Below, in pieces: positions 1 through 21,439 of a stretch of 32,000 nt of DNA (the first letter of the stretch is position 1; the number at the start of each line of letters is the position of its first letter). Source of the stretch: Acaryochloris marina MBIC11017 (GTDB taxonomy: Bacteria; Cyanobacteriota; Cyanobacteriia; Thermosynechococcales; Thermosynechococcaceae); assembly GCF_000018105.1 (NCBI RefSeq), contig NC_009925.1, positions 5,790,001 through 5,822,000 on the forward strand, read 5' to 3'. Under the pieces are notes generated by a model that saw only the letters and a program-made list of their open reading frames with translations, ran no database searches and was not told the origin of the DNA. Both the position numbers and the translations under genes were made by a program.

Positions 1-2
1 AT

Positions 3-131: not shown

Positions 132-135
132 GCTG

Positions 136-1266: not shown

Positions 1267-1324
1267 GGGCTATCTGTAGCTTCACGTTTTCGTTCACCCG
1301 GACTGGCACCTTTCTCAGAAACCA

Positions 1325-2206
1325 CTAGCCAAATTTGAGTTGTGCCTTCACCCGCTCTAGCGCCGTTAAATGCTTGATAAAGGTCAACACAAGCCACAGC
1401 TGCAGTTTCTGGTGGACCGTATCTACCCGTGCCCGAGCAAAGGTCTTGAAAGGGGGGAAGACATCTCTGACAATATCCTTGATGAATTTCTTTAAGGTGT
1501 AGGTACTAGACTGGCTCAAGTCATAGGGGCCTCGGGTTGTTCTGAGGATTTTCTGGTAAAGCTGTGCAAAGGAATGCCGAGCTGGGTGATGGACAAAAGC
1601 CTCTGCTGAATAGACTTGTGGATACCCTGCCTTGAACACTCGTTGTCCCCATTCATAGTCCCCACCAGATTTCAGGGTTTGATCAAACAAACCGACTTTG
1701 TGGAAGACCGATTTAAAGGTAAAGACATTGGCCGTAGCGCCAAACTTGGCATGTTTTAAATACAAATCTTGCTGTAAATACAGCACGCTATCACAGAGTT
1801 CAATGGGGTTTGGCTGTTGTGGATTTTGATAGCTGAATTCGATTCTGCCAGCCACTAGACCACAGTTGGGAGTATCGTGTAAGCTCTGAACCCCTTTTTC
1901 AATCCAGTCAGGGGCAGGTATACAGTCTGCATCCGTGAACGCTAGGATGTTTCCTTTTGCGATCGCAATCCCAGTATTTCGGGCAGCATAGGACCCCCGC
2001 TGAGGCTCAATCACGACATTGGCGTGGGGGAAATGGGTAACAACAGCCTGCACATCATCTTCAGATGCATTATCGACGACTATGACTTCATAGGAATCTT
2101 GGTGAAAGGTCTGTTGCTCGAGGGCCAATAAGCATTGTGCCAAACGCTCCGTATCATTGAAGACTGGAACGATAACCGAAATAAAATCTGGGGAAGGGAG
2201 AGTCAT
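1325..2206 (-). CDS. GT2-family (GT-A fold) glycosyltransferase
   Basis: N-terminal ISVIVPVFNDTERL...EVIVVDNASED and FTDADC (DxD-like) motifs. It is a paralogue of the adjacent ORF 2245-3153. Confidence 0.85.
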   Translation of the reverse strand: MTLPSPDFISVIVPVFNDTERLAQCLLALEQQTFHQDSYEVIVVDNASEDDVQAVVTHFPHANVVIEPQRGSYAARNTGIAIAKGNILAFTDADCIPAPDWIEKGVQSLHDTPNCGLVAGRIEFSYQNPQQPNPIELCDSVLYLQQDLYLKHAKFGATANVFTFKSVFHKVGLFDQTLKSGGDYEWGQRVFKAGYPQVYSAEAFVHHPARHSFAQLYQKILRTTRGPYDLSQSSTYTLKKFIKDIVRDVFPPFKTFARARVDTVHQKLQLWLVLTFIKHLTALERVKAQLKFG

Positions 2207-2244
2207 GGCTATGTGTGTGCTTTTTTAGAAATACGACCCGATAG

Positions 2245-3153
2245 CTAGTGTTGTCCTTGCAAGGAGACTTTAGTCTGGGTGCCCAATCTTTTAAGTAGGG
2301 CATTCAGACGACCCAAGCTTTTGGCAATATTACAAATCCAAGCGATAAATATGATGGAAGTTACGTGTTGTCGAGCTTCGTCACTCTCAGAATCGAGAAT
2401 AAACTGTCTATAACGCCAGGGATTGGGTGGAAGAATTTGCCGAAGAGTATGGCGGATGACCGCCCATAAGGCAACATTTTGATCCAGCTGCAGGTCCAAC
2501 TGGCCTGCCCCCACCCGGTAGCCTTTCTTCACGAGAGAACGGAAGTTGCGGGTAGGATGATGAATTTCTGCCTCAGGAGAGTAGATAAGTTTGAACCCTG
2601 AGTCGGTGGCTTTCTTGGTCCATTTAAAATCTCCCCCAGATTTTATACTGGAATCAAAATAGCCTATGGCATCAAAGACCCTTCGATCGGTAAATAGGTT
2701 TGCTGTAACCGTCAACTGTCGGTTTTCAATATTCTTCTTAACTTGTAAGGACGTAATGGAGTCAAATAACTCTGCTGCTGTTCTTTGAGGTGAAAAGGAA
2801 AACGTCACTCTACCCCCTGCCAGATCGGCTTGGCCTAAATGTAGCGAATTGACCCCGCTCTCCAACCATTGTTCACAAGGGGTGCAATCGGAATCGGTGA
2901 AAGCCAGTATCTCGCCCTTGGCAATCGCTATTCCTTTATTCCTGGCTGCATAGGAGCTTTGCTTAGCTTCATAAGCATAGATAAAATGCTCAAACTCAGC
3001 TACAACAGCATCAATGGACTCATCTGAATTATTATCCACAACAATCACTTCAAATAAATCTTGAGGATAAGTCTGGCAGCTTAAAGCGGTTAAGCATTCT
3101 CTCAAACGCTGAGTATCATTAAAAACCGGGATAATAACAGAAACAAAATCCAT
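2245..3153 (-). CDS. GT2-family glycosyltransferase (tandem paralogue)
   Basis: VSVIIPVFNDTQRL...EVIVVDNNSDE and FTDSDC motifs. It is colinear with 1325-2206 along its whole length. Confidence 0.85.
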   Translation of the reverse strand: MDFVSVIIPVFNDTQRLRECLTALSCQTYPQDLFEVIVVDNNSDESIDAVVAEFEHFIYAYEAKQSSYAARNKGIAIAKGEILAFTDSDCTPCEQWLESGVNSLHLGQADLAGGRVTFSFSPQRTAAELFDSITSLQVKKNIENRQLTVTANLFTDRRVFDAIGYFDSSIKSGGDFKWTKKATDSGFKLIYSPEAEIHHPTRNFRSLVKKGYRVGAGQLDLQLDQNVALWAVIRHTLRQILPPNPWRYRQFILDSESDEARQHVTSIIFIAWICNIAKSLGRLNALLKRLGTQTKVSLQGQH

Positions 3154-3185
3154 AATTAAAAAATTCTATCGATTGCTCATTAACG

Positions 3186-4415
3186 TCATAGAAGGGATTG
3201 ATAAATATCAACTAACTGATCATTCAGGTGATGGATGTTGTAGTCTTTCTCGACAATTCTTCGGCCTGTCAAACCCATCTCGGACCACATGTTTGGGTTG
3301 ATCGCCAAACACTCTAATTTATTTGCCAGTTCATCAACGTCTCGTTCTGGCACCAAGAAACCAGACCTATTATGCTGAACCAATTCAGGAATACCGCTAT
3401 GTTGGGTACTGACAATGGGCATTCCCATAGCCATCGCTTCCATTAAAGCGACCGGAATCCCTTCCTGATCACCATTGTTACTGGTGACACTCGGAGCGAT
3501 GAGAATATCTGACTTCTCAAGAATTTCGATCACATCACTTTGCTCTTTCCAACCCAGAAAATGGATGTGACGCTCCATATTCAAGTTTTTTACAAGTTGT
3601 TGAAGATGATCAGACAGTGGTCCCTCACCAACAATGTTGTACTGGACAAGAATATTCTTATGGATAAGCTGGGCAACTGCCCGAATCGAATACTCAACCC
3701 CTTTTTTCTCGACTAGGCGATTGACAGTGGCCAGAACAATAGGCCGATCTGAACTCAAATGCCTGCTGACATACTTAAATTTGCTGCAATCAATCCCCAT
3801 ATGGTGGACATGGGTCTTGTCTTGTTGACATCCTAAGTTGACTATCTTTTTGAGAAATAGATCACTAATGGGTAAAAAAAGATCACCTTTTGTCCAAAGC
3901 TGATCGTACATATCATTGCCATAAACCTGGAGATGTTTTGTAATGTCCACGCCATGGAAGGTGGTTACCAATTTCCCTTTTAAAGCCTTGACTTCTTTAA
4001 GAAGCAAACCGCGAATCGCATTTAAACCAAAATGGCAATGGACAATGTCATAGGAGGAGGGCCGTGAGATAGCGGGTTCAGCCCGACAGAGCAACTTGAA
4101 GGAGGTTGCTTGTTGGCCATATCTAGCTGCATTGAGAGTATTGAGAACAGCGAAGGGATTCCTAAAGAAACAATGGGCAAGTAGTTTTATTTTTTCGGCC
4201 TGTCGGGCTAAGAACTCAGAAGGCAGTGGATATTCATAACAGATATTTTTATATAAGTCATAATTTCGAATATCACCATGCACAGAAGACTGATACGCAG
4301 GGACATCCGCATAGATATCCACTTCATGCCCCCTATCTACTAAACCAATAATCTGATTTAAGATAAACGTCTTGGAAGCGACGGGAAATTGTCCAACAAT
4401 AAAAGCTATTCTCAT
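3186..4415 (-). CDS. GT4-family (GT-B fold, group 1) glycosyltransferase, WcaL-like
   Basis: C-terminal EX7E-type motif QEGIPVALMEAMAMGMPIVSTQHSGIPELV. The N-terminus MRIAFIVGQFP is typical of group-1 glycosyltransferases. Confidence 0.85.
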   Translation of the reverse strand: MRIAFIVGQFPVASKTFILNQIIGLVDRGHEVDIYADVPAYQSSVHGDIRNYDLYKNICYEYPLPSEFLARQAEKIKLLAHCFFRNPFAVLNTLNAARYGQQATSFKLLCRAEPAISRPSSYDIVHCHFGLNAIRGLLLKEVKALKGKLVTTFHGVDITKHLQVYGNDMYDQLWTKGDLFLPISDLFLKKIVNLGCQQDKTHVHHMGIDCSKFKYVSRHLSSDRPIVLATVNRLVEKKGVEYSIRAVAQLIHKNILVQYNIVGEGPLSDHLQQLVKNLNMERHIHFLGWKEQSDVIEILEKSDILIAPSVTSNNGDQEGIPVALMEAMAMGMPIVSTQHSGIPELVQHNRSGFLVPERDVDELANKLECLAINPNMWSEMGLTGRRIVEKDYNIHHLNDQLVDIYQSLL

Positions 4416-4494
4416 AAGCTAAAGTGCAAAAAATAATCTCATGCAATAAGGCTGTATATAGCGAGGATAAATATAGGACTCTCGAACAACGGTG

Positions 4495-5379
4495 TTATGA
4501 CGCAACCCTAGAAATAACTCTGAATAATTTAGGACTCGTTAACTCATAATCAAGCTGGTCTAATAGAGCACCCGCTACATGCTCAATTTCTGCCACTTGT
4601 ATACGAGTTAACTTTTTCTTCCAGGCAAAGGCTCGGGAACCATTAATGGGTTCAGCCACCCTGGCATGTAAATGCCAATCTCGATTGATATGATCCTTAG
4701 TCTTAGTGTGATGTTGCAGCATGTCTGGTGAATATTCAATCCCCAACCAAGTACAAAGCTTTCGCAAAGACAACTCGGGTTGAGTCACTAAATCTTCGTA
4801 CTTTAGTTCGTAATATCGTTCATTTCCCAATTGACTGCCGATAATAGTGCCATAGCTCACTCGTTGTTGCCATCTTGAGGCAGCACTTTTGATATTCTTT
4901 TCCCAACCAGCTTTCATCAGGCTTAAGGCGACATCTCTGCCATCTCTCAAGACATGCACAAATTTTGCTGTGGGATAAGCTTGGGCCAACCAATCCAGCT
5001 GGGTGACATGGCGGGGGGTTTTATCAGCCCAAAACGGCTTTCCTTGCTTATGAGCAGAGGCTTGAAATAAGGATGCTGCGGCACCATAAAAATCTGCTGG
5101 GGCTACCTGCTTCAGGGCTGCTTCGGCTTCCGATAAAGTCAGTTGAAAGATATCGAAGGAAAAGGTATCTTTCGTGGCGTGATTGAGCTGTAGGTCTCGA
5201 ATAAAAAACCACCGTTGATGGGGTTGACTAAAATCACCATAACTATCACGATGTTTACTCAATTCTTTGAGAAACCAGGACTCTCCAGGAATATGAAGTT
5301 CAGCACTCTGGTTTAAGATAATGCGCAGCAAAGTCGTCCCAGAGCGCTCACATCCGACGATAAATATCGGTTCAAACAC
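4495..5379 (-). CDS. PAPS-dependent sulfotransferase, Sulfotransfer_3/TPST-like class
   Basis: 5'-PSB P-loop IVGCERSGTTLL sits right at the N-terminus and the 3'-PB motif is VLRDGRDVALS. The start is GTG (cac at 5377-5379). Confidence 0.8.
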   Translation of the reverse strand: MFEPIFIVGCERSGTTLLRIILNQSAELHIPGESWFLKELSKHRDSYGDFSQPHQRWFFIRDLQLNHATKDTFSFDIFQLTLSEAEAALKQVAPADFYGAAASLFQASAHKQGKPFWADKTPRHVTQLDWLAQAYPTAKFVHVLRDGRDVALSLMKAGWEKNIKSAASRWQQRVSYGTIIGSQLGNERYYELKYEDLVTQPELSLRKLCTWLGIEYSPDMLQHHTKTKDHINRDWHLHARVAEPINGSRAFAWKKKLTRIQVAEIEHVAGALLDQLDYELTSPKLFRVISRVAS

Positions 5380-5428
5380 AATACGGACCTCTCAAGGGGT
5401 TGATAAGAAAAAAAGACATAAGTGGAGT

Positions 5429-6325
5429 TCAAACTGCTAACCAATGGGATAAATCTCGATTTAATAGTTCCTGGAGTTTATAAATACTCTCCCTGTAATC
5501 AGCCAGGAGGCTAGCCTTTATCTCTGGTAACATTTTGGGCCGATCATAGGTATTCATTGCCATCAGCATCTGTTTGGCTTGGGCACGACTTGTTTGGGGT
5601 AATGTTCGCCGAATGAATCGTTTGATCGTGCTGGGACGGTTGAGAAAATCTCCCAACCTTTTGGATCTCATTAGCTTGGTAACGTTATATCTTTGAACAA
5701 CGTTAGGCTCAAATTCACTATCAATCTCTAGAAACTGGAAAATATCCCGAAGAACATTACTCGGATCTGAGCATAAGTCTTCATAGAGATAGACTCGTAT
5801 TTGTTCTCTGCTAAACAGTTGGAAATATCGGGTAAGGTGCTCGTAATAATATCCTTCTTGTAAGTAGTACCAATCAGGAAGCCAATTTGATTGCTTACGC
5901 TGTTCTTCTGCAAAAATGGCTTTCTCAAAAGAATCTAGAGGCTCCAAGTCTTTTCTATACAAGTGCCAGTAGTGTGAGTAAGCCCTCTCGGCAGGTTCCC
6001 GAAGGATAGCAATCAGCTTCACATCAGGAATATAGTGCTTAATCCGTTCAGGGGCAGTTGGAGAACTTAAGTACCAAGTTGAAGCTTCTCCAATGGCCTG
6101 CTCATCAGCCACTTGGGAAAAGAGCCGCTGATACTCATCGAGGTTGGTGACAATGTTATACCTGGACACGCCATGGCCATTAAAGCCAGTGCAGCCCTCG
6201 AAAGCAAAGAATCTGGGTTCTTTGTGGGAGCTCATATATACTTGGGGATGTTCTTCCAAGTACTTATAGAGAGAGGTCGTTCCCGATTTAGGAGCACCAA
6301 TTACAAGGAAATTAGGCAATACCAT
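5429..6325 (-). CDS. PAPS-dependent sulfotransferase, Sulfotransfer_1 (heparan-sulfate-type) class
   Basis: 5'-PSB VIGAPKSGTTSLYKYL and 3'-PB ILREPAERAYSHY. It is a paralogue of 7671-8585. Confidence 0.85.
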   Translation of the reverse strand: MVLPNFLVIGAPKSGTTSLYKYLEEHPQVYMSSHKEPRFFAFEGCTGFNGHGVSRYNIVTNLDEYQRLFSQVADEQAIGEASTWYLSSPTAPERIKHYIPDVKLIAILREPAERAYSHYWHLYRKDLEPLDSFEKAIFAEEQRKQSNWLPDWYYLQEGYYYEHLTRYFQLFSREQIRVYLYEDLCSDPSNVLRDIFQFLEIDSEFEPNVVQRYNVTKLMRSKRLGDFLNRPSTIKRFIRRTLPQTSRAQAKQMLMAMNTYDRPKMLPEIKASLLADYRESIYKLQELLNRDLSHWLAV

Positions 6326-6384
6326 AGAAATGATGAGTGACGGAGGAACAACAACAGGTTATAAGGGGCAATCCATCCGGTTTC

Positions 6385-7608
6385 CTAGACGTTGACGGTG
6401 AGTTCTGCCCGTTCACATAGATATTTGAAAGACTCAATAAACCGCTCTTGGTTATGGGAAGACTTCACCCATCTTTTTCCATCTATTGCTAAACGGTTAC
6501 GCAGATCTTTATCGTCGAGAAGCCGCTGTAAACTTTCTACAAATTTGGGTAGAGCCTCTCGTCCAGAGCCATCCCATCGCCCCACATACACACCGTATCG
6601 AGAAACGACATTCTCAGAATCTACACAGCTCAGGATCGGGGTCTCACACATCAGGGCTTCTAAAAAGCTAATGGCAAGCCCTTCATGAATAGAGGTATTG
6701 GCTAAAACCCATGCAGAGGAAAGAATTCGAATTTTCTCTTCTCCATCAATATGACCCATCATTTTGACATTACTGGGTAGGGAATCGGGTTCCCAAGCCC
6801 CTAGCCCTTGAAAGTGATTTTTGCCCATAAAGATAAAGTCAACTTCAGGGAAATAGGTTGCCAGCTCAGCAAATAACCAAGGACGTTTATAGGGATCGAG
6901 TCGGGCTAGAAAAACAACGCTAGGCTTTTCACTTTTGACGATTGTTTTTGGCTCGTCAATAATATGCTCGATAATATTGGGCAACAGGGTAATTTCTGAC
7001 GGTTCCACGCCATAGGTGCCCACGACTTTTTCTTCGTAATAGGCCGCGGGTTGGGCAAATAGTATGGGTCGTTTCGAGAAAGGGGAATTTGACTTCTTGA
7101 CGATCTCTGCTAAGGAGGTGCAGTTCACGGGTTTCAAGCCTTGAGGGACATTGTCTCCTTGACCAGGAATCCGGGTGCTCTCGATCCGCTTCATATCATA
7201 GGGCGTTCTCGGATCGTGTACCCAAATAATGACGGGAACACGTGGTAGGGCATCAATAATGGGTCGATAGTTAGACCGGTAATCCATCGTTAAGATAATG
7301 TCAAACTTCTCATTGTTAAGCAGTTGACGACGTTGATGCTTATCCTTAGGCAGTATCAATAGGCGGGTGCCATGGGCCATGACTTCTGTTTCACTCACGT
7401 CCGATAAGCTGCCAGTGATAAAAACTGGCTCAACCCCTAGCTCCGAATTTTGGTTAAATAAATCGGCGACTTGACGAATAGCAACACCAAAGCCACCCAT
7501 TCTTCCTAAAGACAGATCATAGAATTCGTTGGCAATAAGCCCTAGCTTGATCTTGTTTTTGGGAATGGCAGAAGTGTCAACTGTTCTGTCTTTCGTAATA
7601 CTAATCAT
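6385..7608 (-). CDS. GT4-like glycosyltransferase
   Basis: The C-terminal half carries VVFLARLDPYKRP...SIHEGLAISFLEALMCETPILS, a GT-B EX7E-like motif. The N-terminal half is less typical. Confidence 0.75.
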   Translation of the reverse strand: MISITKDRTVDTSAIPKNKIKLGLIANEFYDLSLGRMGGFGVAIRQVADLFNQNSELGVEPVFITGSLSDVSETEVMAHGTRLLILPKDKHQRRQLLNNEKFDIILTMDYRSNYRPIIDALPRVPVIIWVHDPRTPYDMKRIESTRIPGQGDNVPQGLKPVNCTSLAEIVKKSNSPFSKRPILFAQPAAYYEEKVVGTYGVEPSEITLLPNIIEHIIDEPKTIVKSEKPSVVFLARLDPYKRPWLFAELATYFPEVDFIFMGKNHFQGLGAWEPDSLPSNVKMMGHIDGEEKIRILSSAWVLANTSIHEGLAISFLEALMCETPILSCVDSENVVSRYGVYVGRWDGSGREALPKFVESLQRLLDDKDLRNRLAIDGKRWVKSSHNQERFIESFKYLCERAELTVNV

Positions 7609-7670
7609 GCTAAATTCACCACACTAAAACAGTACTTTTGATAAATCTTGAGGCAAGTATTTTGAGAACT

Positions 7671-8585
7671 TTATGCCTGCAGCCATGGTGAAAGATCTCT
7701 ATTGACTAAACCTTGGAGGTTAAGAATGTCTTCTTTATAAACATTAATAAACTCCTTCCTTGTTTTTTTTGATATTTTTGGCTTTTCTTTTAGGTTAAGC
7801 AAAAAAATACCGGATTCAATTTTCTGAAGTAAATCATTCGCTATTTTTGGGCCGATTGAGCGGTTTACTTTAGAGCCATTCGACCAAATTTTTTGCAAAA
7901 AGTAGGTATGTAATCTTTTGCTCCTAGGGATGCCAGACGGATTATGTCGAATGGAAAAGTCAGGACTAAAACAATGATCAACACCTAAGAAACGATAAAT
8001 ATCTTTTACTATTTTCTGAGGATCCTTAATCAGATCTTCAAAGAAATAGATTTTTATATTTTTTTTATCAAAAAGCTCGAAATAAGGTTTCAATAAAGAG
8101 AAGTAAAATCCTTTTCGTTTGTAATGCCAATGAGGAGCCCATCGATTTTTAATCCGCTCTTCTTCTAATAACATGGCTTCTGAAAAATTATCAGTGGTTT
8201 CAATACCTCTACTGAGGGAGTCCAGAAAATTGGAATAAGCTCGTTCGATTGGGTCTCTCAATATTGCGATTATTTTAGCGTTAGGAATATGATGATGTAT
8301 TCTCCGAGGTGCCTTAGGCGTTGTCAAGTAGATTGGAGAAGCCTCACCAATCGCAATTTCATTTGATACCTGATTAAATAACTTCTGATAATCATCAATT
8401 TTATTGATGAATTTAAACCTTGTATCATCCGGACCTTGAAAGTTAATCTCTTCATCTTCCACAGCAAAGAAACGAGGTTCTTTTTTAGGGCTCATAAAAA
8501 TTTGTGGGTGTTCTCCTAAATATTTATAGAGTGATGTGGTTCCAGCCTTCCCAGCTCCAATAATTACGAAGTTTGGCATTGTCAT
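7671..8585 (-). CDS. PAPS-dependent sulfotransferase, Sulfotransfer_1 class
   Basis: IIGAGKAGTTSLYKYL (5'-PSB) and ILRDPIERAYSNF (3'-PB). The gene is much more AT-rich than its paralogue 5429-6325. Confidence 0.85.
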   Translation of the reverse strand: MTMPNFVIIGAGKAGTTSLYKYLGEHPQIFMSPKKEPRFFAVEDEEINFQGPDDTRFKFINKIDDYQKLFNQVSNEIAIGEASPIYLTTPKAPRRIHHHIPNAKIIAILRDPIERAYSNFLDSLSRGIETTDNFSEAMLLEEERIKNRWAPHWHYKRKGFYFSLLKPYFELFDKKNIKIYFFEDLIKDPQKIVKDIYRFLGVDHCFSPDFSIRHNPSGIPRSKRLHTYFLQKIWSNGSKVNRSIGPKIANDLLQKIESGIFLLNLKEKPKISKKTRKEFINVYKEDILNLQGLVNRDLSPWLQA

Positions 8586-8732
8586 TTTGAAGAATCCCTG
8601 CAGATATCATGTGTGTGCGAGCAAAAAAGTCAATAAGCAATTGAAATGATAAAAATCTAATAGTTTGTCAACAGTATAAAGATGGAAAATGAGAAAGATG
8701 TACCTAGTGTATGTTGATTAAAGTAGGCATAA

Positions 8733-8803
8733 ATCAATCATTAAAAAATCCAACTTCATATATCAATCATTTGAAAAACGAGGATCTTTTAACATCAATC
8801 ATT
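8733..8803. repeat. Three direct copies of ATCAATCATT, with starts 29 and 32 nt apart, in a 242-nt intergenic gap
   Basis: Exact 10-mers lie at 8733-8742, 8762-8771 and 8794-8803. The first two copies extend to CATAnATCAATCATTnnAAAA. The repeats sit 148-218 nt upstream of the sulfotransferase start at 8585 on the minus strand. Confidence 0.6.
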
Positions 8804-8827
8804 AATGCTGAATTGGGAATTGGTCGA

Positions 8828-10669: not shown

Positions 10670-10678
10670 ATCAAACGA

Positions 10679-11662: not shown

Positions 11663-11837
11663 TAGATAACTTCAGTACTAATGTTTTTTATGGATTCAAT
11701 AAAGTGGAAGTAAACAATTTCTTGAAATTGATCATCCACTAGACCTCTTGCAATATTCGTTTCATGGTGTGTTACGCACTCAATTTATGCCGCGATCTGA
11801 CTTGAATTTTTAGTTCGCTACCATGCCGTTAGCTGAA

Positions 11838-12386
11838 TTATGCGAGAGGTCTACTAACGTAGGACAAGCCGGAGTGAAAATGATTTAAGCGAATAACTTT
11901 GGCAGGGTTACCAGCGACTACAGCATGGGCAGGAACATTGGATACCACTACAGCTCCAGCTCCAATAACAGCATTATCTCCAATTTCGATGGGGCCAAGA
12001 ATAACAACATTACAACCAATTTCAACATGGTCTCCAATGGTGGGAGATGAAGAAACTGACCCATCCGATAGAATCTTATTTCCAATCGTAGTGGAGTGAC
12101 GAATGATACAATCCCTACCGATAGTTGCATGGCGATTGATAACTAGTGAAAATCCATGCTGAAGTTGAAGATTCTTGCCTATTGTAGTGTCAGTAGGCAA
12201 TTCTATTGCAAATAGTATCTCCGTAAAAATCTGATATAGATAAGTTAGTAATCTAAGTGGATAGGGAAGGTTTGATAGTAATTGAGAAGTCCTAAAAAAA
12301 GAAAGCACAAGTCGCGACTTTAAACTGGTCAGCTTATTAACCTCCCAGTCTTGAAAAATATATTCGAGCAGCTGGTTTTTTATCAT
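11838..12386 (-). CDS. Left-handed beta-helix (hexapeptide-repeat) O-acetyltransferase, WcaB/CysE-like
   Basis: Hexapeptide repeats IGDHVEIGCNVVILGPIEIGDNAVIGAGAVVVSNVP. I place the start at the ATG at 12386 (MIKNQLLEY...). The track ORF extends to a TTG at 12413, which would overlap the upstream stop by 4 nt. Confidence 0.8.
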   Translation of the reverse strand: MIKNQLLEYIFQDWEVNKLTSLKSRLVLSFFRTSQLLSNLPYPLRLLTYLYQIFTEILFAIELPTDTTIGKNLQLQHGFSLVINRHATIGRDCIIRHSTTIGNKILSDGSVSSSPTIGDHVEIGCNVVILGPIEIGDNAVIGAGAVVVSNVPAHAVVAGNPAKVIRLNHFHSGLSYVSRPLA

Positions 12387-12409
12387 CAATCTCACCTGAA
12401 TAACCCGGA

Positions 12410-13321
12410 TCAAACTCGTTGATTAGCAACTCTAAGTGCAGGCCTAGCCTGACCAGCAGTCATTTGTTTATCGAATGCTTGATCAAGCCTACTGAGTAAG
12501 CCATCACAGAGTTCTTGGATATCCGCTGAAAGATCTAAAGATCTCCCTTTGTCTACAGAATATGAATTAATCTCCCACGTATTTCTAGCTCTAAATCTTT
12601 TTCCCAAAAAAGAATAGATATCGTTTATAAATTGATTCGGATAGCACACCATATGCTCATATTTACACATCATTACTCTTGAGTTCTGATTAAGCTCTAA
12701 CTCAAAAAAGAATGAATTTCTGACATACCAAAACAAAGCAACTGCATCAGCGGGTTGGATATCATCCCTATAAAATTCAACTAAGGTTGATCGGACAGAA
12801 GATGGGATGGATTCCGAATACCAAAAATCCGTATTTCCCTCAATAATGGCTTTGATATTTCGTATTCCTACATTTAGACTGAATTTATTTAGAAATGAAT
12901 TTATAACGTCTTTATACCCCCTATACATCCATAAAGCTTTAGATTGAGGAAAATGATCGAGTAAATGCAAAATATTTTGCGTTTCTACCAATGGCTTCAA
13001 AACGATCGTAGGAGACTTATCTTTTAATAAATCTGATTCCAAATCCTGAAATGAGTTGAGCCGAAGCTTATAATATCCTGTCTGAGTTGAATCATTCGAT
13101 GACAAGCAGCTAGATTCTCTATATACACTGATATTGAAATCCCTAGCAAAAATTCGGTTAATCAAGCTTGTGCCTGAACGTTGACAACCAACTATCATCA
13201 GAATTTGTTGTTGAGGACAAGTTAGATAAAATAATTTTTGATATAGAAACTTTAAGGCATAAATAAGATATAAGTCAAAGGTGACATGCTCAATATTTAA
13301 TCGTTTTTTTATTCCATTCAT
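12410..13321 (-). CDS. Putative PAPS-dependent sulfotransferase, divergent Sulfotransfer_3-like
   Basis: P-loop MIVGCQRSGTSLINR and a 3'-PB-like motif MYRGYKDVINS. It is very AT-rich and diverges from the other three sulfotransferases. Confidence 0.65.
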   Translation of the reverse strand: MNGIKKRLNIEHVTFDLYLIYALKFLYQKLFYLTCPQQQILMIVGCQRSGTSLINRIFARDFNISVYRESSCLSSNDSTQTGYYKLRLNSFQDLESDLLKDKSPTIVLKPLVETQNILHLLDHFPQSKALWMYRGYKDVINSFLNKFSLNVGIRNIKAIIEGNTDFWYSESIPSSVRSTLVEFYRDDIQPADAVALFWYVRNSFFFELELNQNSRVMMCKYEHMVCYPNQFINDIYSFLGKRFRARNTWEINSYSVDKGRSLDLSADIQELCDGLLSRLDQAFDKQMTAGQARPALRVANQRV

Positions 13322-13362
13322 AAGTATTTCCCCGAGATAATCTAGGAACTGTAATTAGATAT

Positions 13363-14726
13363 CTAGTTAGTAAGACTCACTATTTCTGGAGAATTCCAAT
13401 CCCAGCTTGATATTGCAAATAAAATAGAAAAATAGAAGAAGAATACCGTATGACTCCATATGTTTTCTGTGAGCATTCCCACTAAAACTGCAATAATTAA
13501 AGCAGTAATAATCAGGCTTAAATCCTTGTGAGAGTCTAAAGTGGAAGTTCGTACTAATTTAATCGATTGAGTGAGATATATCCCCCACAATACTAAATAA
13601 GAGAAGAGCCCTAATATTCCGCCCTCAATCAATGCCCTTAAATAGTCATTATGAGGTAAATATTTACTATCAATGGATTGCTTGCTTAGCCCCAAACCAT
13701 AACCAAGGAAGGAATGTTTTTCCCATGCCTTTAAAACAGTATGCCAATGAGATAAGCGCCAATTAAAACTATTATGATCAGACTCAGACAAAAGTATCCC
13801 TCGATTAATACTAATCTCTGGGTTTAATAAAGGCGTATTAATCGTTGACTCAAGTCTCGACCGACCATAGTCCGTACTAGCAAATAAACTAATTACCAGG
13901 GAAAACTTAATATTCCAAAAATCAAGGTCTTCAAATTTAATTTAGGAAGAATGACTACCAGTAAAGATACTAACAACATCACTAGAACAAACAATGCTTT
14001 AGTACTAATCAACAAAAAGGATAGTCCACCTAACAGCGTTATCCAAAGCCCCTTGAATTTAGATGAATTCTTATATTGCCACCACACTATTCCCATAAAT
14101 AATAGGAGAAATGAAGCAAATGCATTTGAATGAGCAAAAGTCGAGTTAATTCGTTCTATTCCATTTTGGAGCTGAAATAAGGCCATCAAAATTGGGATAG
14201 GTAAAGCCAGCAATAGGACAGAGAGAATCTTTTGAGGTGAGACCTTCCCTTTTAACTGCAGAACTAAAAAATATGCGGTTGGCCATATCAGTATTCTTAG
14301 CCACTCTCTAACACTTTCAGCTAAATAAGAAGCATCAGAGCCTAATGCATCGAGAGGCATTAACAACAGCCATAATCCTTGGGAGATTGTCCAGCCGAAT
14401 AATAGCCACCAAAATGAGTCTGTTTGAATTGATTTATTACTAATAAAACAAAACACCATATAGATTACGGCTAACATCTCAATTCCGACTCCATAAGCAG
14501 CAGGAATCTTAGCTTGAGAAAAGAAATCAAGTGAGCTTCTAAGCACAAGTAAAAAAAGGATGCTGACTTCAAACTCCTTTAGAAAAAAAGACAATAAAAT
14601 AGCTATTATTACTAATAGTATGCTTGCTTTAAGGGTGACTTCTCCCAACATGGCAGTACCCAAAGCAATTGACAAAGAGAGCAATCCAAAACTAATACTT
14701 TTCTTATTGAGTTCAAATATAGTCAT
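13363..14726 (-). pseudogene. Wzy/O-antigen-ligase-like (Wzy_C) polytopic membrane protein, split into two ORFs by a frameshift
   Basis: ORF 13893-14726 is multi-TM. ORF 13363-13791 carries the Wzy_C-type loop (YLPHNDYLRALIEGGILGLFSY). The downstream frame stays open up to 13941 and overlaps the end of the upstream ORF. One indel near the G3A4 run at 13899-13905 would fuse them into a protein of about 450 aa. Confidence 0.6.
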
Positions 14727-14759
14727 ATATGCTTAAGAAAAAGATTTATCCATCCGAGT

Positions 14760-16883
14760 TCATGCAGCCAAGGCATAATCTTCTTTTAAGTAGCGATAAT
14801 ATTTATCCGTTGAGGCCGTTACTCCATTTATTGCCAGACCGACAACATTGACATTATTAGAATTTAAGATGTCTATGGACCTATTTAGAACTTGCTTAGG
14901 AGTAACGTCAAGCCTTGCAACCACAACCGTTTGACGCCCTTCTTGGCTTAATACTAAAGCGTCAGAACAAGCCATTACGGGTGGAGTATCAATCACAATC
15001 ACATCGTAATGTTGTTGCACCTCAGTAAATAGTTCCTTTGCTCTTTGGGTTTCAAAAGAGAAGACATTATCATATGAAAACTTCCCTGAAGTCATCACCG
15101 ATAAGTTTTTTACTGAAGTTCTGTGGATAGCAGCGGGTAAACCTTCTTTTACTGAACCTCTGAGGTAATCTTGCAATCCTGGATCCTGAGGCAACTGAAA
15201 AATCTTATGGATAGAAGGACGCCGCATATCAGCATCAATCAGTAAAGTTCTTTTTGACAACATTGCCGATAAAACAGCCAAATTCGTGGCGACAAATGAT
15301 TTACCCTCACCAGAAATTGCACTGGTTATGACTAAAACTTTGCTTTCAGTTGAATTTTTATATTCAATATTTTTAGATAATGCTCTTACTGATTCTAATA
15401 ATGGCAAGTTATTATAAAGTTCAGCAAATGGTAATGAAGGGAACAAACGGCTATTCTTTTGTTTGGGAATTACGCCTAACACAGGAACGTTTGTGTTTTC
15501 TGCTATGCTCTCTAAGTCTCTGAGTCGTCCATCCATCCCTTCAGCGCTTAAAGTGACCCCTGCCGACAGTGCAACTGCAGCCATCATTCCTAGCACAAGA
15601 AAACTAGGAATATTCGGATATGAGGGTAAAGTTGGTTTATTCGCTTCCTCAATGATTCTGAGATTACTAACCAGTTGAGCTTCTGCAATACGGGCCTCAT
15701 CAAGCTTCTGACGGAGAAGATTGACTGATTCTGTTGCCCCTTCCTTTTTTCTTTGTAAGGAGGCTAAAGTTTTTTCCAAGACAGGGTATTGCTTACGCCT
15801 AGCATCTAACTTAGATATGTAGGCTCTTGTGTTCGCCAATTTGTCCCTTAGTTCATTCCGTTCAACCACACTAAGGACTAATTTTTCTGATAGTTCTTGG
15901 GTCACTTTTTCATTTGCAACCTGAACTGTGCCATCCGAGTTTAAGCGGCTCCTTGGAGATATCGTTGCAAGCTTCTGTTGATACAGAGCTTGGGCAGCAT
16001 CCTTCTCAGTGATTAGTTTTTGAATATCTGGATGATCATCCGTTAAACTCTCTCGCCTGATTTTTAGCTGCGACTCAAGATTAGACAGTTGATCTCTCAA
16101 GCTAATTAGCTCAGGATTCTGCCCAGCCTTCGCTGATAAGTATGATTCTTTACCAGAACTTTGGTCTATGACTTTACTGAGTGCCAAGCCTCGTGCTTGT
16201 ACTTGTCTCAAATTAGCCGATATCTCCTCAGCCACTTTCTCGGCTTCAGCAATACTTTGAGTTAGTCGCTTATTGTCTGTTTCCTCTAGTGAAACAATGT
16301 TGTATTGCTGCTTAAACTGACTGATGGAAGATTCAACTTTAACGAGTTCCTGTTGCCTGCGAGGGATTTGATTCTCTAGAAATTGTCGTGTTGCCCTTGC
16401 TTCAGAGCGAATAGTCTCAGCATTCTCTTGAATGACGCTTGAGGCGATCAAATTCAATAGCGATGAAGTTACTCCTGGGTCAGTATGGCGAAATGTAATT
16501 TCAATGATCTGAGTACCGGGAATAACCTCTGTGGCAACTTCTGGCTTAACCTCGCCTAGGGTAACTTTCTCAATGGCACTATCCTGATTGCTTTGGTTAA
16601 ACAGCACAATAGCTTTTGTGAGAACACTTTTTGAACGAACAAGCTCTTCTTGGGTTGCTAGCCCCTTGTTGTTATCCCCTGGCGTTTGAGCAATATCACG
16701 ACCCAGGGGGGAAATACTTGTGGCTGGCCTTTGATCCAAAATTAACCGGACTTTTGCGGAATATAGACGAGGAGTAATTAGCAAATACACGACTATTCCA
16801 GTAAAAACAGACAGAAAAGTTCCTACGGTAGTCCAACGATTCCTATAAATTATTTTGATTACTTTTGAAACAGATTCGTTCAT
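14760..16883 (-). CDS. wzc: Polysaccharide co-polymerase (PCP-2a) with a C-terminal bacterial tyrosine kinase domain, Wzc/GumC-like
   Basis: N-terminal TM segment, then a long coiled-coil periplasmic region and a second TM segment. Kinase motifs are Walker A SAISGEGKS, Walker A' LLIDADMRRP and Walker B VIVIDTPP. The Tyr-rich tail is DKYYRYLKEDYALAA. Confidence 0.9.
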   Translation of the reverse strand: MNESVSKVIKIIYRNRWTTVGTFLSVFTGIVVYLLITPRLYSAKVRLILDQRPATSISPLGRDIAQTPGDNNKGLATQEELVRSKSVLTKAIVLFNQSNQDSAIEKVTLGEVKPEVATEVIPGTQIIEITFRHTDPGVTSSLLNLIASSVIQENAETIRSEARATRQFLENQIPRRQQELVKVESSISQFKQQYNIVSLEETDNKRLTQSIAEAEKVAEEISANLRQVQARGLALSKVIDQSSGKESYLSAKAGQNPELISLRDQLSNLESQLKIRRESLTDDHPDIQKLITEKDAAQALYQQKLATISPRSRLNSDGTVQVANEKVTQELSEKLVLSVVERNELRDKLANTRAYISKLDARRKQYPVLEKTLASLQRKKEGATESVNLLRQKLDEARIAEAQLVSNLRIIEEANKPTLPSYPNIPSFLVLGMMAAVALSAGVTLSAEGMDGRLRDLESIAENTNVPVLGVIPKQKNSRLFPSLPFAELYNNLPLLESVRALSKNIEYKNSTESKVLVITSAISGEGKSFVATNLAVLSAMLSKRTLLIDADMRRPSIHKIFQLPQDPGLQDYLRGSVKEGLPAAIHRTSVKNLSVMTSGKFSYDNVFSFETQRAKELFTEVQQHYDVIVIDTPPVMACSDALVLSQEGRQTVVVARLDVTPKQVLNRSIDILNSNNVNVVGLAINGVTASTDKYYRYLKEDYALAA

Positions 16884-17053
16884 AACAGGATAAAAAAGCT
16901 AATGACTTACTTTGCTTATTTAGAATGCTTAGCTAAACTAAGTAGCTTTTCTACTTAATTAGTCCAAGCCAATACCCATACCATTCAATTCCACCCATCA
17001 AAAAAAGATGAAGTCAAAAAAGTGTGGTAAATTCGAAGACACTAGCCTCCCAA

Positions 17054-18235
17054 TTACTTCACATCTAACGGTTCACTTTTCTCAGGATTAAGAGGAAAAT
17101 CCGAACTCAAAAGCGCTGAATAAAGGTCCAAATTATCGGCAGTTATTTTTTGCCAAGTATAGTTCTCAGAAACGTGCTTTTTAGCCCTCATAGCCATTTG
17201 GGATAGCTTTTCTAAATCCCTCAAAGCAACATCAATGCTATCAATACAAGATTGTAGATTTCCTGCTTGGAACATAATGCCTCGATCAGTACCTAGCAAT
17301 TGACGATGTGCCAAGATGTCACTAGCCAAAATGGGAATACCTTCACGCATAGCCTCCAACATGGCCAATGGCAAACCCTCTAAATCTGAAGGTAGGGTAA
17401 ATAACCCTGCACCTCTAACCAGCTCTGCCAATCGTGCACCTTTCAGCTCACCTGCAAACACTACATCATCTCTATCCTCAGCTCTATTCAAGAGTTCTCT
17501 TTGATAGACTGTTGTATCGCTAACGCCACCCACGAGTACTAATTTCCAGCCACAGGCTTCTATCCTCTTAAAAGCTTCAATTAATAGCTCAGGTCTTTTT
17601 TCAGGTACAAGCCTGCCCAGAAAAATAAAATATTTACCAGGTTCTAAACCGAGAGATTTTCCGAATTTAAAGTCTGGATCTGAATTTTTATATGTGGCAG
17701 GTGCATTGGGAATATACACCGTCTTTCGCTGATAGGTATGCCAAAAATAGGCTTCAAGCTCTCTTGAAACAACGGTTATTTCATCAGCGAATAGCGCAGC
17801 TGCTCGTTCACCTAACCGGATGATAGTGCTAGAGAAGGTTCCCCATTTTGCTCTTTGCCAGTCTAAACCTTGGCAAGTGACTACAATCTTAGGAGGCTTC
17901 TGGAAAGGATTTAACTTAGGTAACCAACAGAATAAAGAAGGTCCTAATGCATGAAAGTGGACAATATTATATTTTCCTAAAGAGGCTGATATAGCTGCAA
18001 TCAAAGAAGATAGAAAAGCATCAATCCCACGTAGCCAAATACTGGGAAGATTGACAACCTCTACCCCCTCATAGGAGGTTCTTTTAAACCACGATAAATT
18101 AGTATAAGAGGAACGGGCAAACAAGACCACAGAATTTCCTTGGGCAACCATTCGAGGATAAACCTCTGAACAGTGATGCTCGATTCCACCTTGTTTTGCT
18201 GGTAGACCCTTTGGTCCAATAACGGCAACTTTCAT
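17054..18235 (-). CDS. GT4-family glycosyltransferase
   Basis: MKVAVIGPKGLPAKQGGIEHH N-terminus and EX7E motif DLEGLPLAMLEAMREGIPILASD. Confidence 0.85.
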   Translation of the reverse strand: MKVAVIGPKGLPAKQGGIEHHCSEVYPRMVAQGNSVVLFARSSYTNLSWFKRTSYEGVEVVNLPSIWLRGIDAFLSSLIAAISASLGKYNIVHFHALGPSLFCWLPKLNPFQKPPKIVVTCQGLDWQRAKWGTFSSTIIRLGERAAALFADEITVVSRELEAYFWHTYQRKTVYIPNAPATYKNSDPDFKFGKSLGLEPGKYFIFLGRLVPEKRPELLIEAFKRIEACGWKLVLVGGVSDTTVYQRELLNRAEDRDDVVFAGELKGARLAELVRGAGLFTLPSDLEGLPLAMLEAMREGIPILASDILAHRQLLGTDRGIMFQAGNLQSCIDSIDVALRDLEKLSQMAMRAKKHVSENYTWQKITADNLDLYSALLSSDFPLNPEKSEPLDVK

Positions 18236-18253
18236 TTGGCAACCTTATTCATG

Positions 18254-18301
18254 ACATCAAGTACTTGGGGTTAGCGGTCTCAGATTGGCGTCGGGAACCG
18301 C
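18254..18301 (-). repeat. Hairpin repeat copy A (conserved box plus a GCGGT/ACCGC stem around a conserved loop)
   Basis: Sequence is acatcaagtacttggggttaGCGGTctcagattggcgtcgggaACCGC. It shares a 19-nt core and a 5' box with copy B. On the minus strand it ends 18 nt before the GT start codon at 18235. Confidence 0.6.
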
Positions 18302-18489
18302 AGATTAAAATAGTTAGTTTGATAACGTTAAACAACGTGTAAGTTTAAGCAACATTGCAAACTTAGGAAAATCATTTTTCATGGGATTTATCTCGAATTC
18401 AACATAGCTTTTAACTCAGATACCCTAACGGGTTAGATCTGTTTGATTAATATCTCTAAAAATTGCTGCTAGCATGGGATTAGGCTCCT

Positions 18490-18545
18490 ACATCAGTACT
18501 TGGGAGTTAAGAGAGCAGTCTCAGATTGGCGTCGGGGGCTGCTCT
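18490..18545 (-). repeat. Hairpin repeat copy B (same conserved box and loop, different complementary stem AGAGCAG/CTGCTCT)
   Basis: Sequence is acatcagtacttgggagttaagAGAGCAGtctcagattggcgtcgggggCTGCTCT. The core gtctcagattggcgtcggg is identical to copy A, 241 nt away. Confidence 0.6.
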
Positions 18546-18601
18546 TGCAGCTTCGAAGTAATGATGTCCCATAGACTCATCTGGGACAAATTCGTCGTCA
18601 A

Positions 18602-19831
18602 TTACGCTGTCGAGAAAGTTTTCTCTGACAATTGCTGTCTGTCTTTCCATCGTTCTCGCATATCGTTATAAACTTCTGAAACAACCAACCTCGCCCAATA
18701 GGGACTGGATAATTGAGCGCAGGCTTGACTGGGATAACTTTGAGGGTTTTCCAATACAGTCCTGAGAGAATCAGCGGTGGATTTAGGGGTTCTCGTAGGA
18801 ATGATGACTCCTGTTTTTTTCGTAAGCAATTTAGAGGTTTCACCCGAATCAGTCGAAACGATTGGAATCCCGCAAGTTAGGGCCTCCAATACAACCATCG
18901 GGAGCCCTTCATAAACGCTTGTTAAGGCTAAAAGGTCACTCACTCTGAGAATATCTGCAATCTCTCGCGAATTCATGGAGCCCAGCAAAGTTACCTGTCT
19001 ATTTAATCCTAAATTCTTGATTTCCAATTGAATATCTTCTTTTAGTTCGCCTACTCCAATCATAAGTAGATGGATATTGGCGTCATCGAGTTCTGCTATT
19101 GATCTAACCAATAACAAAGGATCTTTTTGAGGGTGCAATCGCCCCACGTAGGCAATGAAGTGTGTCTTCAAAGACAGCTCCATTTCTGTGATCAGTTGAA
19201 GACGCTTTTGGTCCTTTAGTTGAGTAGATAGTGGGAAAAAGATTTCATCATCCACGGTATTTCGGATCAGCTGATAACAGCCCTTAGTGGAGAAGTAAGT
19301 TTTCTGTAAATACTTCAGGGATTCGGAATTGCAGGACAACACATAGGAGAATTGCTTAATCAGCATATTTTCAAGCAGGAAATATGCAGAAGGTAAATAT
19401 CTCCATAAAAAGGTTTTATTATCACCTTGACTATTGACTTGCTTTTTTATATCTGCATGAATAAATAACGTTTTTTCGCCATGCCAACTAAATGATGCTA
19501 AAGAAGGCTCAATTCTATGAAAATGGAGAAAGTCAGAATTTAAATCCTTTCCAAACAATGCTAGAAGGAATTTTAAGGTAGTGGGTATTAGTCCTCTGAT
19601 GTTGTCATCTTCAATATAAAGTATAGGGAGATACTGTATCTGCTTGTTAAAAACTAAAATAGTTTGCCAGCTACCAATACTGCACTCCTTTCTAGATGTG
19701 ATCCCTACCAGTCGAATATCAAAATCCTGAGGTGCATATTTAATAAAGTTCAGAATGGTTGTCTGAATGCCACCAATACTGACATCCAGTGGATCAATTT
19801 GATAAAAAATAGTCAAAGATGGATTTAACAT
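18602..19831 (-). CDS. GT4-family glycosyltransferase (first gene of the cluster)
   Basis: EX7E motif SVYEGLPMVVLEALTCGIPIVSTDSGE. ATG start at 19831. Confidence 0.8.
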   Translation of the reverse strand: MLNPSLTIFYQIDPLDVSIGGIQTTILNFIKYAPQDFDIRLVGITSRKECSIGSWQTILVFNKQIQYLPILYIEDDNIRGLIPTTLKFLLALFGKDLNSDFLHFHRIEPSLASFSWHGEKTLFIHADIKKQVNSQGDNKTFLWRYLPSAYFLLENMLIKQFSYVLSCNSESLKYLQKTYFSTKGCYQLIRNTVDDEIFFPLSTQLKDQKRLQLITEMELSLKTHFIAYVGRLHPQKDPLLLVRSIAELDDANIHLLMIGVGELKEDIQLEIKNLGLNRQVTLLGSMNSREIADILRVSDLLALTSVYEGLPMVVLEALTCGIPIVSTDSGETSKLLTKKTGVIIPTRTPKSTADSLRTVLENPQSYPSQACAQLSSPYWARLVVSEVYNDMRERWKDRQQLSEKTFSTA

Positions 19832-20054
19832 TCAGCAGATTGCTAACGACTTTGCACAGCCTTAGATAGAAACAAGAACGTCTGAGATAAGCAATTATTC
19901 TATCTATGGAATTCCGAGCAATCCTCAACCAACATGGTTTTTAGTAGATTACTAAGAAGCATCTGAATTTACATCAGCAAACTAATCCAATAGTTCAATA
20001 AAAACTGTGTAATGACATACCAATAAATCTAGTTTCCTAGAGAAAATCCGTTTT

Positions 20055-20070
20055 TGTAAAACACACTACA
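20055..20070. promoter_or_regulatory. Perfect NtcA-consensus palindrome TGTA-N8-TACA
   Basis: tGTAaaacacacTACa at 20055-20070. I found no TAN3T hexamer 20-23 nt downstream on either strand, so its role is unclear. Confidence 0.25.
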
Positions 20071-20118
20071 CACTTACACTTTATAGCTTTCTTAGTAATA
20101 TTTTGTCCTGACGTTGTC

Positions 20119-20160
20119 ATATTACACATAGTCTTTCATCTTTCGAGTAACCTAGGTTAC
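20119..20160 (-). promoter_or_regulatory. Candidate NtcA-activated (class II) promoter facing the polysaccharide cluster
   Basis: A 14-bp perfect palindrome GTAACCTAGGTTAC (GTA-N8-TAC) lies at 20147-20160. On the minus strand it is followed by exactly 22 nt and then TAATAT (TAN3T) at 20124-20119. Confidence 0.3.
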
Positions 20161-20220
20161 ATTATAAAAATAAAAAATAACGTTCCTAAATTAGGATGTG
20201 TATTCAGAACCGATATTTAG

Positions 20221-21361: not shown

Positions 21362-21439
21362 AGGTCAAATCGGAGACTGATGTGGTGGGTTACCAAGAAC
21401 GCTAGAGTAAAGTTGGGCGTTTAGGCAATAGATGAATTG

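Follow-up and report, generated by a model that had tools for sequence, protein, structure and literature searches.

What does a cyanobacterium assemble with a gene cluster that carries four sulfotransferases among seven glycosyltransferases? The cluster lies on the chromosome of Acaryochloris marina MBIC11017, from AM1_5712 to about AM1_5726, within a stretch of 32,000 nt (NC_009925.1, positions 5,790,001 to 5,822,000) that is termed the window below. It probably builds a sulfated, O-acetylated heteropolysaccharide on a Wzy/Wzc-dependent route, with decoration in the cytoplasm and flipping across the membrane by an ABC (ATP-binding cassette) protein. Its notable features are four sulfotransferases of three lineages, an exporter of HepA type in place of Wzx, a polymerase gene that is frameshifted in the reference sequence, and relatives in the Chloroflexota. 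The cluster is uncharacterised, and such clusters have been known in cyanobacteria since 2021. A literature search on Acaryochloris sulfotransferases returned nothing relevant and no description of the cluster, and a search with the locus tags AM1_5716 to AM1_5724 yielded unrelated accession numbers and no paper naming the genes.

An earlier note, made from the DNA letters, had proposed a sixteen-gene cluster for a multiply sulfated, acetylated exopolysaccharide (EPS). A Wzy/Wzc-type locus with sulfotransferases and an acetyltransferase is upheld by domains, motifs, fold and synteny; the completeness of the gene set and a division of the sulfotransferases into two classes are not. The novelty of that reading was overstated, its interpretation was otherwise reasonable. 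Hidden Markov model searches were run with Pfam, on all non-nested open reading frames (ORFs) of the window with at least 100 aa, and with NCBIfam. They agreed with the listed functions and coordinates, the split wzy gene excepted. Fifteen genes are present instead of sixteen, one of them (wzy) being divided into two ORFs. The content of the interval given for the cluster holds. Its end does not, as the same-strand run goes on to an ORF of 376 aa that had been omitted (Table 1).

Sulfotransferases and assembly genes

The four sulfotransferases (ST1 to ST4) exceed the cutoffs of both models of the PF13469/PF00685 superfamily. Scores against PF13469 (gathering cutoff 27 bits) are 144 bits for ST1, 62.8 for ST2, 63.2 for ST3 and 41.6 for ST4. 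Binding of 3'-phosphoadenosine-5'-phosphosulfate (PAPS) involves a 5'-phosphosulfate-binding loop (5'-PSB) and a 3'-phosphate-binding motif (3'-PB). All four proteins carry a loop of the form G-x-x-[KR]-[SA]-G-T-[TS] and the motif R-x7-S. In ST2 these are GAPKSGTT (residue 10) and REPAERAYS (residue 109), in ST3 GAGKAGTT (residue 10) and RDPIERAYS (residue 110), and in ST4 GCQRSGTS and RGYKDVINS. The 5'-PSB loops align with those of the tyrosylprotein sulfotransferases (TPST) and of NDST1. The 3'-PB motifs of ST1 and ST2 align with TPST MVRDGRASVHSM and NDST1 NPADRAYS. Intact PAPS-binding motifs, as claimed before, are confirmed, and the residues whose lack on alignment had been named as a refutation are in place. 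The spacing of the 3'-PB motif is seven residues and not six.

Sequence searches of the Protein Data Bank (PDB) matched ST1 to TPST1/2 (about 1e-10) and the CurM sulfotransferase (1e-8); ST1 also has a weak match to the Nod-factor sulfotransferase NoeE. ST2, searched instead of its paralogue ST3, matched 3rnl (1.7e-59), NDST1 (3e-17) and the heparan sulfate 3-O-sulfotransferase 3-OST (1e-14). ST2 and ST3 are 42% identical (E 1e-93). The single ST4 protein had no match in the PDB sequence search, and a profile of its family reached TPST1 at 8e-7. In pairwise comparison, ST4 and ST1 have only the P-loop in common. Residues G45-T51, R134 and S142 are invariant in 33 ST4 homologues. The AlphaFold 2 (AF2) model of ST4 has a mean predicted local distance difference test score (pLDDT) of 87.7, and all 50 PDB matches listed by Foldseek are PAPS sulfotransferases (probability 1.00, template-modelling score 0.33-0.55). 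Because the motifs are kept, ST1 and ST2 align to solved enzymes, and the ST4 family shows both invariance and fold, the four ORFs are credible PAPS-dependent sulfotransferases with predicted catalysis and putative saccharide substrates.

The two classes proposed by the earlier note gave way to three lineages. Pfam offers no split, all four proteins matching best to Sulfotransfer_3, while structure matches and pairwise comparison separate an XssE-like ST1, the XssA-like paralogues ST2 and ST3, and ST4 without a counterpart in the xss cluster.

The count of seven glycosyltransferases, three of family GT2 with DxD and four of family GT4 with E-x7-E motifs, was reproduced by Pfam and a motif check. 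GT2a and GT2b are 42% identical. GT4a scores 287 bits against the WcaL model (TIGR04005), under the cutoff of 537, and GT4c is weakly similar to the Cps2T rhamnosyltransferase (NF046071, 79 bits, sub-cutoff). The predicted hexapeptide O-acetyltransferase is likewise present. It matches EpsC at 110 bits and WcaB at 109 bits, each below the model cutoff, and is annotated elsewhere as a protein of 182 aa that begins at a downstream start codon.

The Wzc tyrosine-kinase co-polymerase passes the TIGR01007 cutoff (133 bits, cutoff 108) and ends in a tyrosine-rich tail, DKYYRYLKEDY, in line with the original assignment. The same holds for the HepA/MsbA-type exporter, which exceeds the cutoff of the HepA_fam_ABC equivalog NF045513 (984.2 bits, cutoff 725) over residues 1-610 of a 610-position model. 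Its scores against MsbA (442 bits) and PglK (252 bits) are both sub-cutoff. It is the sole ABC protein of the window, where neither ABC2_membrane nor Wzt_C matched and a Wzm/Wzt- or KpsM/KpsT-type transporter was not found. Models for Wzx and for a priming transferase (PF01943, PF13440, PF02397, PF00953) had no match among the window ORFs of at least 100 aa, and blastp found no match to XssH or XssP. The cluster is incomplete and not self-sufficient. The missing genes for priming, for Wzx and for the outer membrane polysaccharide export protein (OPX) may lie elsewhere, as does the OPX gene xssT in Synechocystis.

Comparison with known systems and the proposed pathway

The xss cluster of Synechocystis sp. 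PCC 6803 (sll5042-sll5060), which encodes the synthesis of synechan, has been validated by experiment (PMC8205485). It was taken from plasmid pSYSM, and all its proteins were compared with the window proteins by blastp. In both clusters sulfotransferases are interleaved with GT2 and GT4 genes, a Wzy-family protein and a Wzc-type polysaccharide co-polymerase are encoded, and neither cluster includes an OPX gene. ST1 is 28% identical to XssE over 277 aa (E 3e-29). ST2 and ST3 resemble XssA (26%, E 2e-20 and 29%, E 3e-23, respectively), ST4 matched neither XssA nor XssE, and Wzc is 21% identical to XssK. The differences are substantial. The xss genes are located on a plasmid, the Acaryochloris locus on the chromosome. 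Two sulfotransferases in xss compare with four in three lineages here. The Wzx flippase XssH is replaced by the HepA-family exporter. XssP and the regulators XssQ/R/S have no counterpart, XssQ having no blastp match and histidine kinases, response regulators and STAND/NACHT proteins being absent from the window. A hybrid kinase with a GAF domain is encoded about 10 kb past its left end. Conversely, the WcaB-like acetyltransferase is an addition to the xss set. Gene order and content differ, and the best protein identities range from 20 to 34%. As judged from these comparisons, the xss precedent invoked by the earlier note is an analogue of the locus and not an orthologue.

The exporter leads to a second system, the heterocyst envelope polysaccharide (HEP) of Anabaena/Nostoc, in which HepA is also encoded among polysaccharide genes. 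The equivalog match is full-length, but the neighbours in the window are not orthologues of HEP or Hps genes, and the models for HpsE, HpsN, HpsO and HpsP remained far under their cutoffs. Acaryochloris is unicellular and forms no heterocysts, and HEP is not known to carry sulfate. The colanic acid (wca) and group 1 capsule clusters of Escherichia coli share with the window a Wzc with a bacterial tyrosine kinase (BY-kinase) domain and a Wzy-family protein. Likeness to wca extends to the WcaL-like GT4, the WcaB-like acetyltransferase and a weakly WcaA-like GT2. The window, however, encodes no Wzx, Wza, Wzb or WcaJ, and the wca cluster has neither sulfotransferases nor an ABC exporter. Orthology with the colanic acid or hormogonium polysaccharide clusters was rejected, every equivalog model scoring far below its cutoff.

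The following route would account for the gene content. Undecaprenyl phosphate would be primed by a phosphoglycosyl transferase encoded elsewhere. Judged by their families, the seven glycosyltransferases would assemble, in the cytoplasm, a repeat with at most about eight sugars. The lipid-linked unit would then be decorated by the four PAPS-dependent sulfotransferases and the WcaB-like acetyltransferase, on presumed saccharide substrates; this step is placed in the cytoplasm because PAPS and acetyl-CoA are available there. As no Wzx is encoded, the HepA-family half-transporter is the only candidate translocase and would probably flip the decorated unit across the inner membrane in a PglK-like manner. 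Subsequent polymerisation would be catalysed by Wzy. The co-polymerase and BY-kinase Wzc would set the chain length and couple the reaction to an outer-membrane exporter encoded elsewhere.

The xss/synechan pathway is the only bacterial pathway for a sulfated EPS that has been dissected genetically, and the Acaryochloris locus would be a second, differently built example. It combines four sulfotransferases from three lineages with an acetyltransferase and, instead of the Wzx of xss, an ABC exporter, and would therefore be a useful source of enzymes for the engineering of sulfated polysaccharides. It would also be a test case for the question whether HepA-type exporters can substitute for Wzx, and for ABC-assisted Wzy pathways. 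In Acaryochloris itself, the formation of biofilms and aggregates may depend on the locus. A bolder version of the pathway is speculative and rather improbable as a whole. It could comprise a densely sulfated (at least three sulfates per repeat), acetylated, glycosaminoglycan-like EPS, with two of the four sulfotransferases of the heparan-NST/3-OST kind, a hybrid export in which a HepA-type ABC protein and not Wzx flips the repeats for Wzy, a role as the basis of the biofilm formation that far-red light is reported to promote in A. marina, and the 376-aa lipoprotein as a new glycan-processing component.

Table 1. Coordinates of the cluster, its genes and a related sulfotransferase triad. Positions refer to the window, in the last row to the contigs named there.
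Feature	Position	Strand	Basis
Polysaccharide gene cluster	1325-19831	-	Pfam, NCBIfam and ORF list
376-aa lipoprotein-like ORF (AM1_5712), last of the same-strand run	136-1266	-	Hydrophobic N-terminus ending LLAC
GT2a, GT2 glycosyltransferase	1325-2206	-	PF00535 1.2e-27; DAD at residue 92
GT2b, GT2 glycosyltransferase, GT2a paralogue	2245-3153	-	PF00535 6.4e-23; DSD at residue 87
GT4a, WcaL-like GT4 glycosyltransferase	3186-4415	-	PF00534 1.1e-36; EGIPVALME at residue 318
ST1 (AM1_5716), XssE/TPST/CurM-like sulfotransferase	4495-5379	-	PF13469 1.1e-41; GCERSGTT at residue 9; RDGRDVALS at residue 145
ST2 (AM1_5717), XssA-like, heparan-sulfate N-sulfotransferase/3-OST-like	5429-6325	-	PF13469 7e-17; PF00685 1e-15
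GT4b, GT4 glycosyltransferase	6385-7608	-	PF00534 7.4e-13; EGLAISFLE at residue 309
ST3 (AM1_5719), ST2 paralogue	7671-8585	-	PF13469 5.5e-17; PF00685 1e-15
HepA-family ABC exporter (AM1_5720), half-transporter with fused transmembrane and nucleotide-binding domains	8828-10669	-	PF00664 and PF00005
GT2c, GT2 glycosyltransferase	10679-11662	-	PF00535 2.7e-31; DGD at residue 87
Hexapeptide-repeat acetyltransferase, WcaB/EpsC/CysE-like	11838-12413	-	PF00132 7.8e-13
ST4 (AM1_5723), distinct lineage, no xss counterpart	12410-13321	-	PF13469 2e-10; PF00685 3e-7
wzy, O-antigen polymerase/ligase family, frameshifted	13363-14726	-	Wzy_C 1e-10 on C-terminal fragment
Wzc-type co-polymerase, C-terminal BY-kinase	14760-16883	-	GNVR; AAA_31/ParA; weak Wzz match
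GT4c, GT4 glycosyltransferase with N-terminal DUF1972	17054-18235	-	PF00534 1.3e-24; PF09314 3e-7
GT4d, GT4 glycosyltransferase, first gene of the run	18602-19831	-	PF00534 2.1e-31; strain-variable segment
Sulfotransferase triad	about 9.05-11.9 kb (L029, L042, L046, L052, L060, L069, L070, L072)

The wzy frameshift and rival readings

In the window, wzy consists of an ORF of 277 aa (13893-14726) and an ORF of 142 aa (13363-13791), which holds the Wzy_C domain. The lesion is a deletion of 1 bp in a homopolymer at about 13903-13906, upstream of that domain, where the plus strand reads A4 in the window and A5 elsewhere. Insertion of one base yields a protein of 454 aa with about 8-9 hydrophobic segments. 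It is identical to the protein of strain MBIC10699 (P0002), whose chromosome (AP026075) is 99.986% identical to the window across 22 kb and separated from it by only two single-nucleotide polymorphisms, at 17190 and 21382. Six related contigs have the extra base and a 454-aa wzy, and the gene is intact in all other strains and read sets examined. In public databases, the fragment of 277 aa (WP_049783786.1) is confined to the MBIC11017 chromosome. The Wzy-like polymerase of the earlier note is retained as a member of the Wzy_C family, not as an intact single gene. Two independent read-set assemblies, SRR29694077 and SRR29694091, share the window alleles at 17190 and 21382, yet carry an intact run. 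A pseudogene throughout the strain is therefore less likely than an error of the reference or a mutation specific to one culture. Either the reference contains a homopolymer error, or the culture that was sequenced is unable to polymerise the product. Users of the MBIC11017 reference will find wzy frameshifted there, and it looks intact in other read sets.

Several points weigh against a released, Wzy-polymerised sulfated polysaccharide. The polymer itself is a predicted product. The polymerase gene is frameshifted in the given sequence, which may leave the sequenced culture with a broken pathway. Genes for a priming transferase, Wzx and OPX (Wza) are absent from the window and, according to precomputed annotation, from the 10 kb past its left end. 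The flippase function of the ABC protein is conjectural, the PglK and MsbA models being below cutoff. The role of Wzy as polymerase is putative as well, PF04932 spanning also O-antigen ligases and O-oligosaccharyltransferases. The EPS of another Acaryochloris isolate does contain sulfate (PMC11034128), an indirect chemical support for the predicted product, but 1.7% (w/w) is a low value for four sulfates per unit. In Synechocystis, bloom formation and EPS accumulation changed little upon deletion of xssE, and the number of sulfotransferases is therefore a poor predictor of the number of sulfates. The breadth of PF04932 also admits a cell-bound glycan, such as a sulfated O-antigen, a capsule or a glycoprotein glycan, of which the repeat or chain would be exported by the ABC protein and transferred by the Wzy_C protein as a WaaL/PglL-type ligase. 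The NCBI name of the protein, 'O-antigen ligase family protein', the fused ABC exporter in place of Wzx and a divergently encoded SLH-domain protein next to the cluster are in keeping with such a product, and ABC-type clusters generally lead to cell-bound polymers (Maeda et al., PMC8205485). The ABC protein, however, has the architecture of the MsbA/HepA exporters and not that of Wzm/Wzt or KpsMT from the ABC-dependent O-antigen and capsule pathways. A full-length Wzc with BY-kinase and tyrosine tail is typical of Wzy-dependent capsule or EPS systems, whereas the Wzz of O-antigen systems lacks the kinase. A cell-bound glycan is regarded as unlikely on balance.

Still less probable is a mere co-location of some or all sulfotransferases that act on other acceptors, e.g. 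glycolipids, small metabolites or protein tyrosines. Among solved structures, ST1 and ST4 are indeed nearest to tyrosylprotein sulfotransferases and the CurM/OLS polyketide sulfotransferases, and the weak NoeE match of ST1 points in the same direction. The sulfotransferase genes are, however, interleaved with glycosyltransferases in a single, tightly spaced same-strand run. ST1 is most similar to XssE, and ST2 and ST3 are most similar to XssA and the heparan sulfate sulfotransferases. Polyketide synthase, nonribosomal peptide synthetase and lipid-synthesis genes are absent from the window and the 10 kb past its left end, and homologous sulfotransferase triads of the Chloroflexota are likewise located among GT4 and GT2 genes. 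More serious, though still rather doubtful, is a decaying or inactive locus in the MBIC11017 culture, where a real loss-of-function mutation acquired in the laboratory would have abolished the polymer. The frameshift is found in the window as well as in the RefSeq protein set and costs the protein its Wzy_C domain. Furthermore, mutations in an EPS-type tyrosine kinase were selected time and again when A. marina CCMEE 5410 was evolved in the laboratory (PMC8763236), and the preprint version linked them to reduced biofilm. On the other hand, the two read sets with the window alleles contain the additional base and a complete wzy. The change of one base in a run of five is of a kind that sequencing errors typically produce, and all remaining genes of the cluster are intact. 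An inactivated locus in this culture is compatible with the Wzy/Wzc-dependent pathway in other strains. Identity of the CCMEE 5410 kinase (peg.5255) with the wzc of the window was considered and rejected. The kinase gene lies on replicon '1', and the target-site duplications described for its 3' end, TGGTAAT and CAATATGG at a distance of 8 nt (PMC8763236), are missing from the 3' end of wzc. The kinase is probably a different paralogue, and laboratory evolution provides no experimental link to the locus.

Distribution, gene organization and neighbours

The claim that cyanobacteria are the main bacterial producers of sulfated polysaccharides is weakened by the distribution of ST4. A search of 185,579 species genomes was seeded with its family and did not return the A. 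marina representative. Homologues beside other sulfotransferase genes were found in many Chloroflexota and in other phyla. Two or more sulfotransferase-like genes are present in 21 of the 38 full-length loci and three or more in 11; four occur only in Acaryochloris. In metagenome-assembled genomes (MAGs) of Chloroflexota, e.g. Promineifilum, Ardenticatenia and Caldilineaceae, an XssA-like, an ST4-like and an ST1/XssE-like gene form a contiguous triad (Table 1) among GT4 and GT2 genes, sometimes with a Wzc-like gene. The proteins are 23-43% identical to those of the window, where the sulfotransferases are interleaved with glycosyltransferases instead of contiguous. A tblastn search with the ABC and Wzy proteins of the window detected neither in the triad stretches. 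Sulfated capsules with gene clusters have also been reported for Vibrio and Cobetia. Multi-sulfotransferase glycan loci are not peculiar to cyanobacteria, and the ST4 family in loci of Chloroflexota and other phyla suggests that the literature, with its focus on cyanobacteria, greatly understates how widespread sulfated glycans are in bacteria. According to Maeda et al. (2021, PMC8205485), most sulfotransferase genes of cyanobacteria are located in putative EPS clusters of the Wzx/Wzy or ABC type, and these clusters are 'more or less partial'. Supplementary file 3 of that study lists 13 sulfotransferases for A. marina MBIC11017 with the comment 'far-red light induction', citing Hernandez-Prieto et al. 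(2018).

The full architecture of the cluster recurs only in Acaryochloris among the genomes probed with ST4. In the Acaryochloris MAG L011, the four sulfotransferase types are all present but arranged in another order. A second MAG, Acaryochloris sp. IP29b_bin.176 (L010) of a sister lineage, retains the genes GT4d through ABC at 70-85% identity. Downstream of the ABC gene, the other half (L010:14860-19863) is replaced by a single Sulfotransfer_3 gene, an FrhB-like gene, a polysaccharide pyruvyl transferase and a GT4. The pattern resembles the exchange of a sulfation cassette for one that combines sulfation with pyruvylation, which fits a variable anionic surface or extracellular polymer. The GC content over 3-21 kb is 34-45%, compared with 47-51% in the right flank, and such a low value is typical for a variable polysaccharide island. 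Fifty of the 59 differences from the contig of a closely related strain (L003) fall into positions 18479-20220, which cover GT4d and its upstream region. Their clustering points to a tract of local recombination at the end nearest to the promoter.

An exact-sequence look-up identified the proteins across the window as ABW30659 (AM1_5712) to ABW30682 (gyrA), with ABW30670 as the sulfotransferase AM1_5723. The spacing of the same-strand genes is mostly tight. Two long intergenic gaps, 8586-8827 (242 nt) and 18236-18601 (366 nt), are unusual in such a run and may contain internal promoters. An Rfam scan of the whole window gave zero matches, those gaps included. A promoter and terminator scan of positions 1-20000 returned the same counts as shuffled sequence and was uninformative on operon structure.

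The 376-aa ORF at the end of the run had no Pfam or NCBIfam match. About 1441 homologues with 55-70% identity occur across cyanobacteria, some of them fused to a GDSL-lipase or PF06439 domain. The AF2 model (pLDDT 80.8) had no fold match in the PDB, the best E-value being 2. Contexts of homologues were inspected in five contigs (L089, L090, L092-L094). On L090, a contig from a metagenome, a homologue with 65% identity is likewise the last gene after GT2, sulfotransferase and GT4 genes and likewise lies opposite a convergently encoded RTX protein. In four Nostocales or related contexts, the homologue is divergent from an ABC1/UbiB kinase gene, and glycosyltransferase or flippase genes are located within about 7 kb. 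The ORF probably belongs to the transcription unit of the cluster and is probably tied functionally to glycan metabolism.

The right flank consists of housekeeping genes recognized by Pfam and NCBIfam, namely a hisC-like gene, a HAD gene, gyrA, cobU and an Fe-S assembly gene. Two plus-strand genes at 20477-22717 run divergently to the cluster. They encode a HetL-like pentapeptide-repeat protein and the SLH-domain protein of 426 aa, which also has a precomputed match to the domain AF_1845. To the left, the cluster abuts a convergent gene for an RTX-like protein of 1086 aa with HemolysinCabind repeats (window 1-131, plus strand; L007:12076-15336). Its counterpart in L090 carries the carbohydrate-binding modules CBM6 and CBM35, and by analogy the RTX neighbour may bind or process the polymer.

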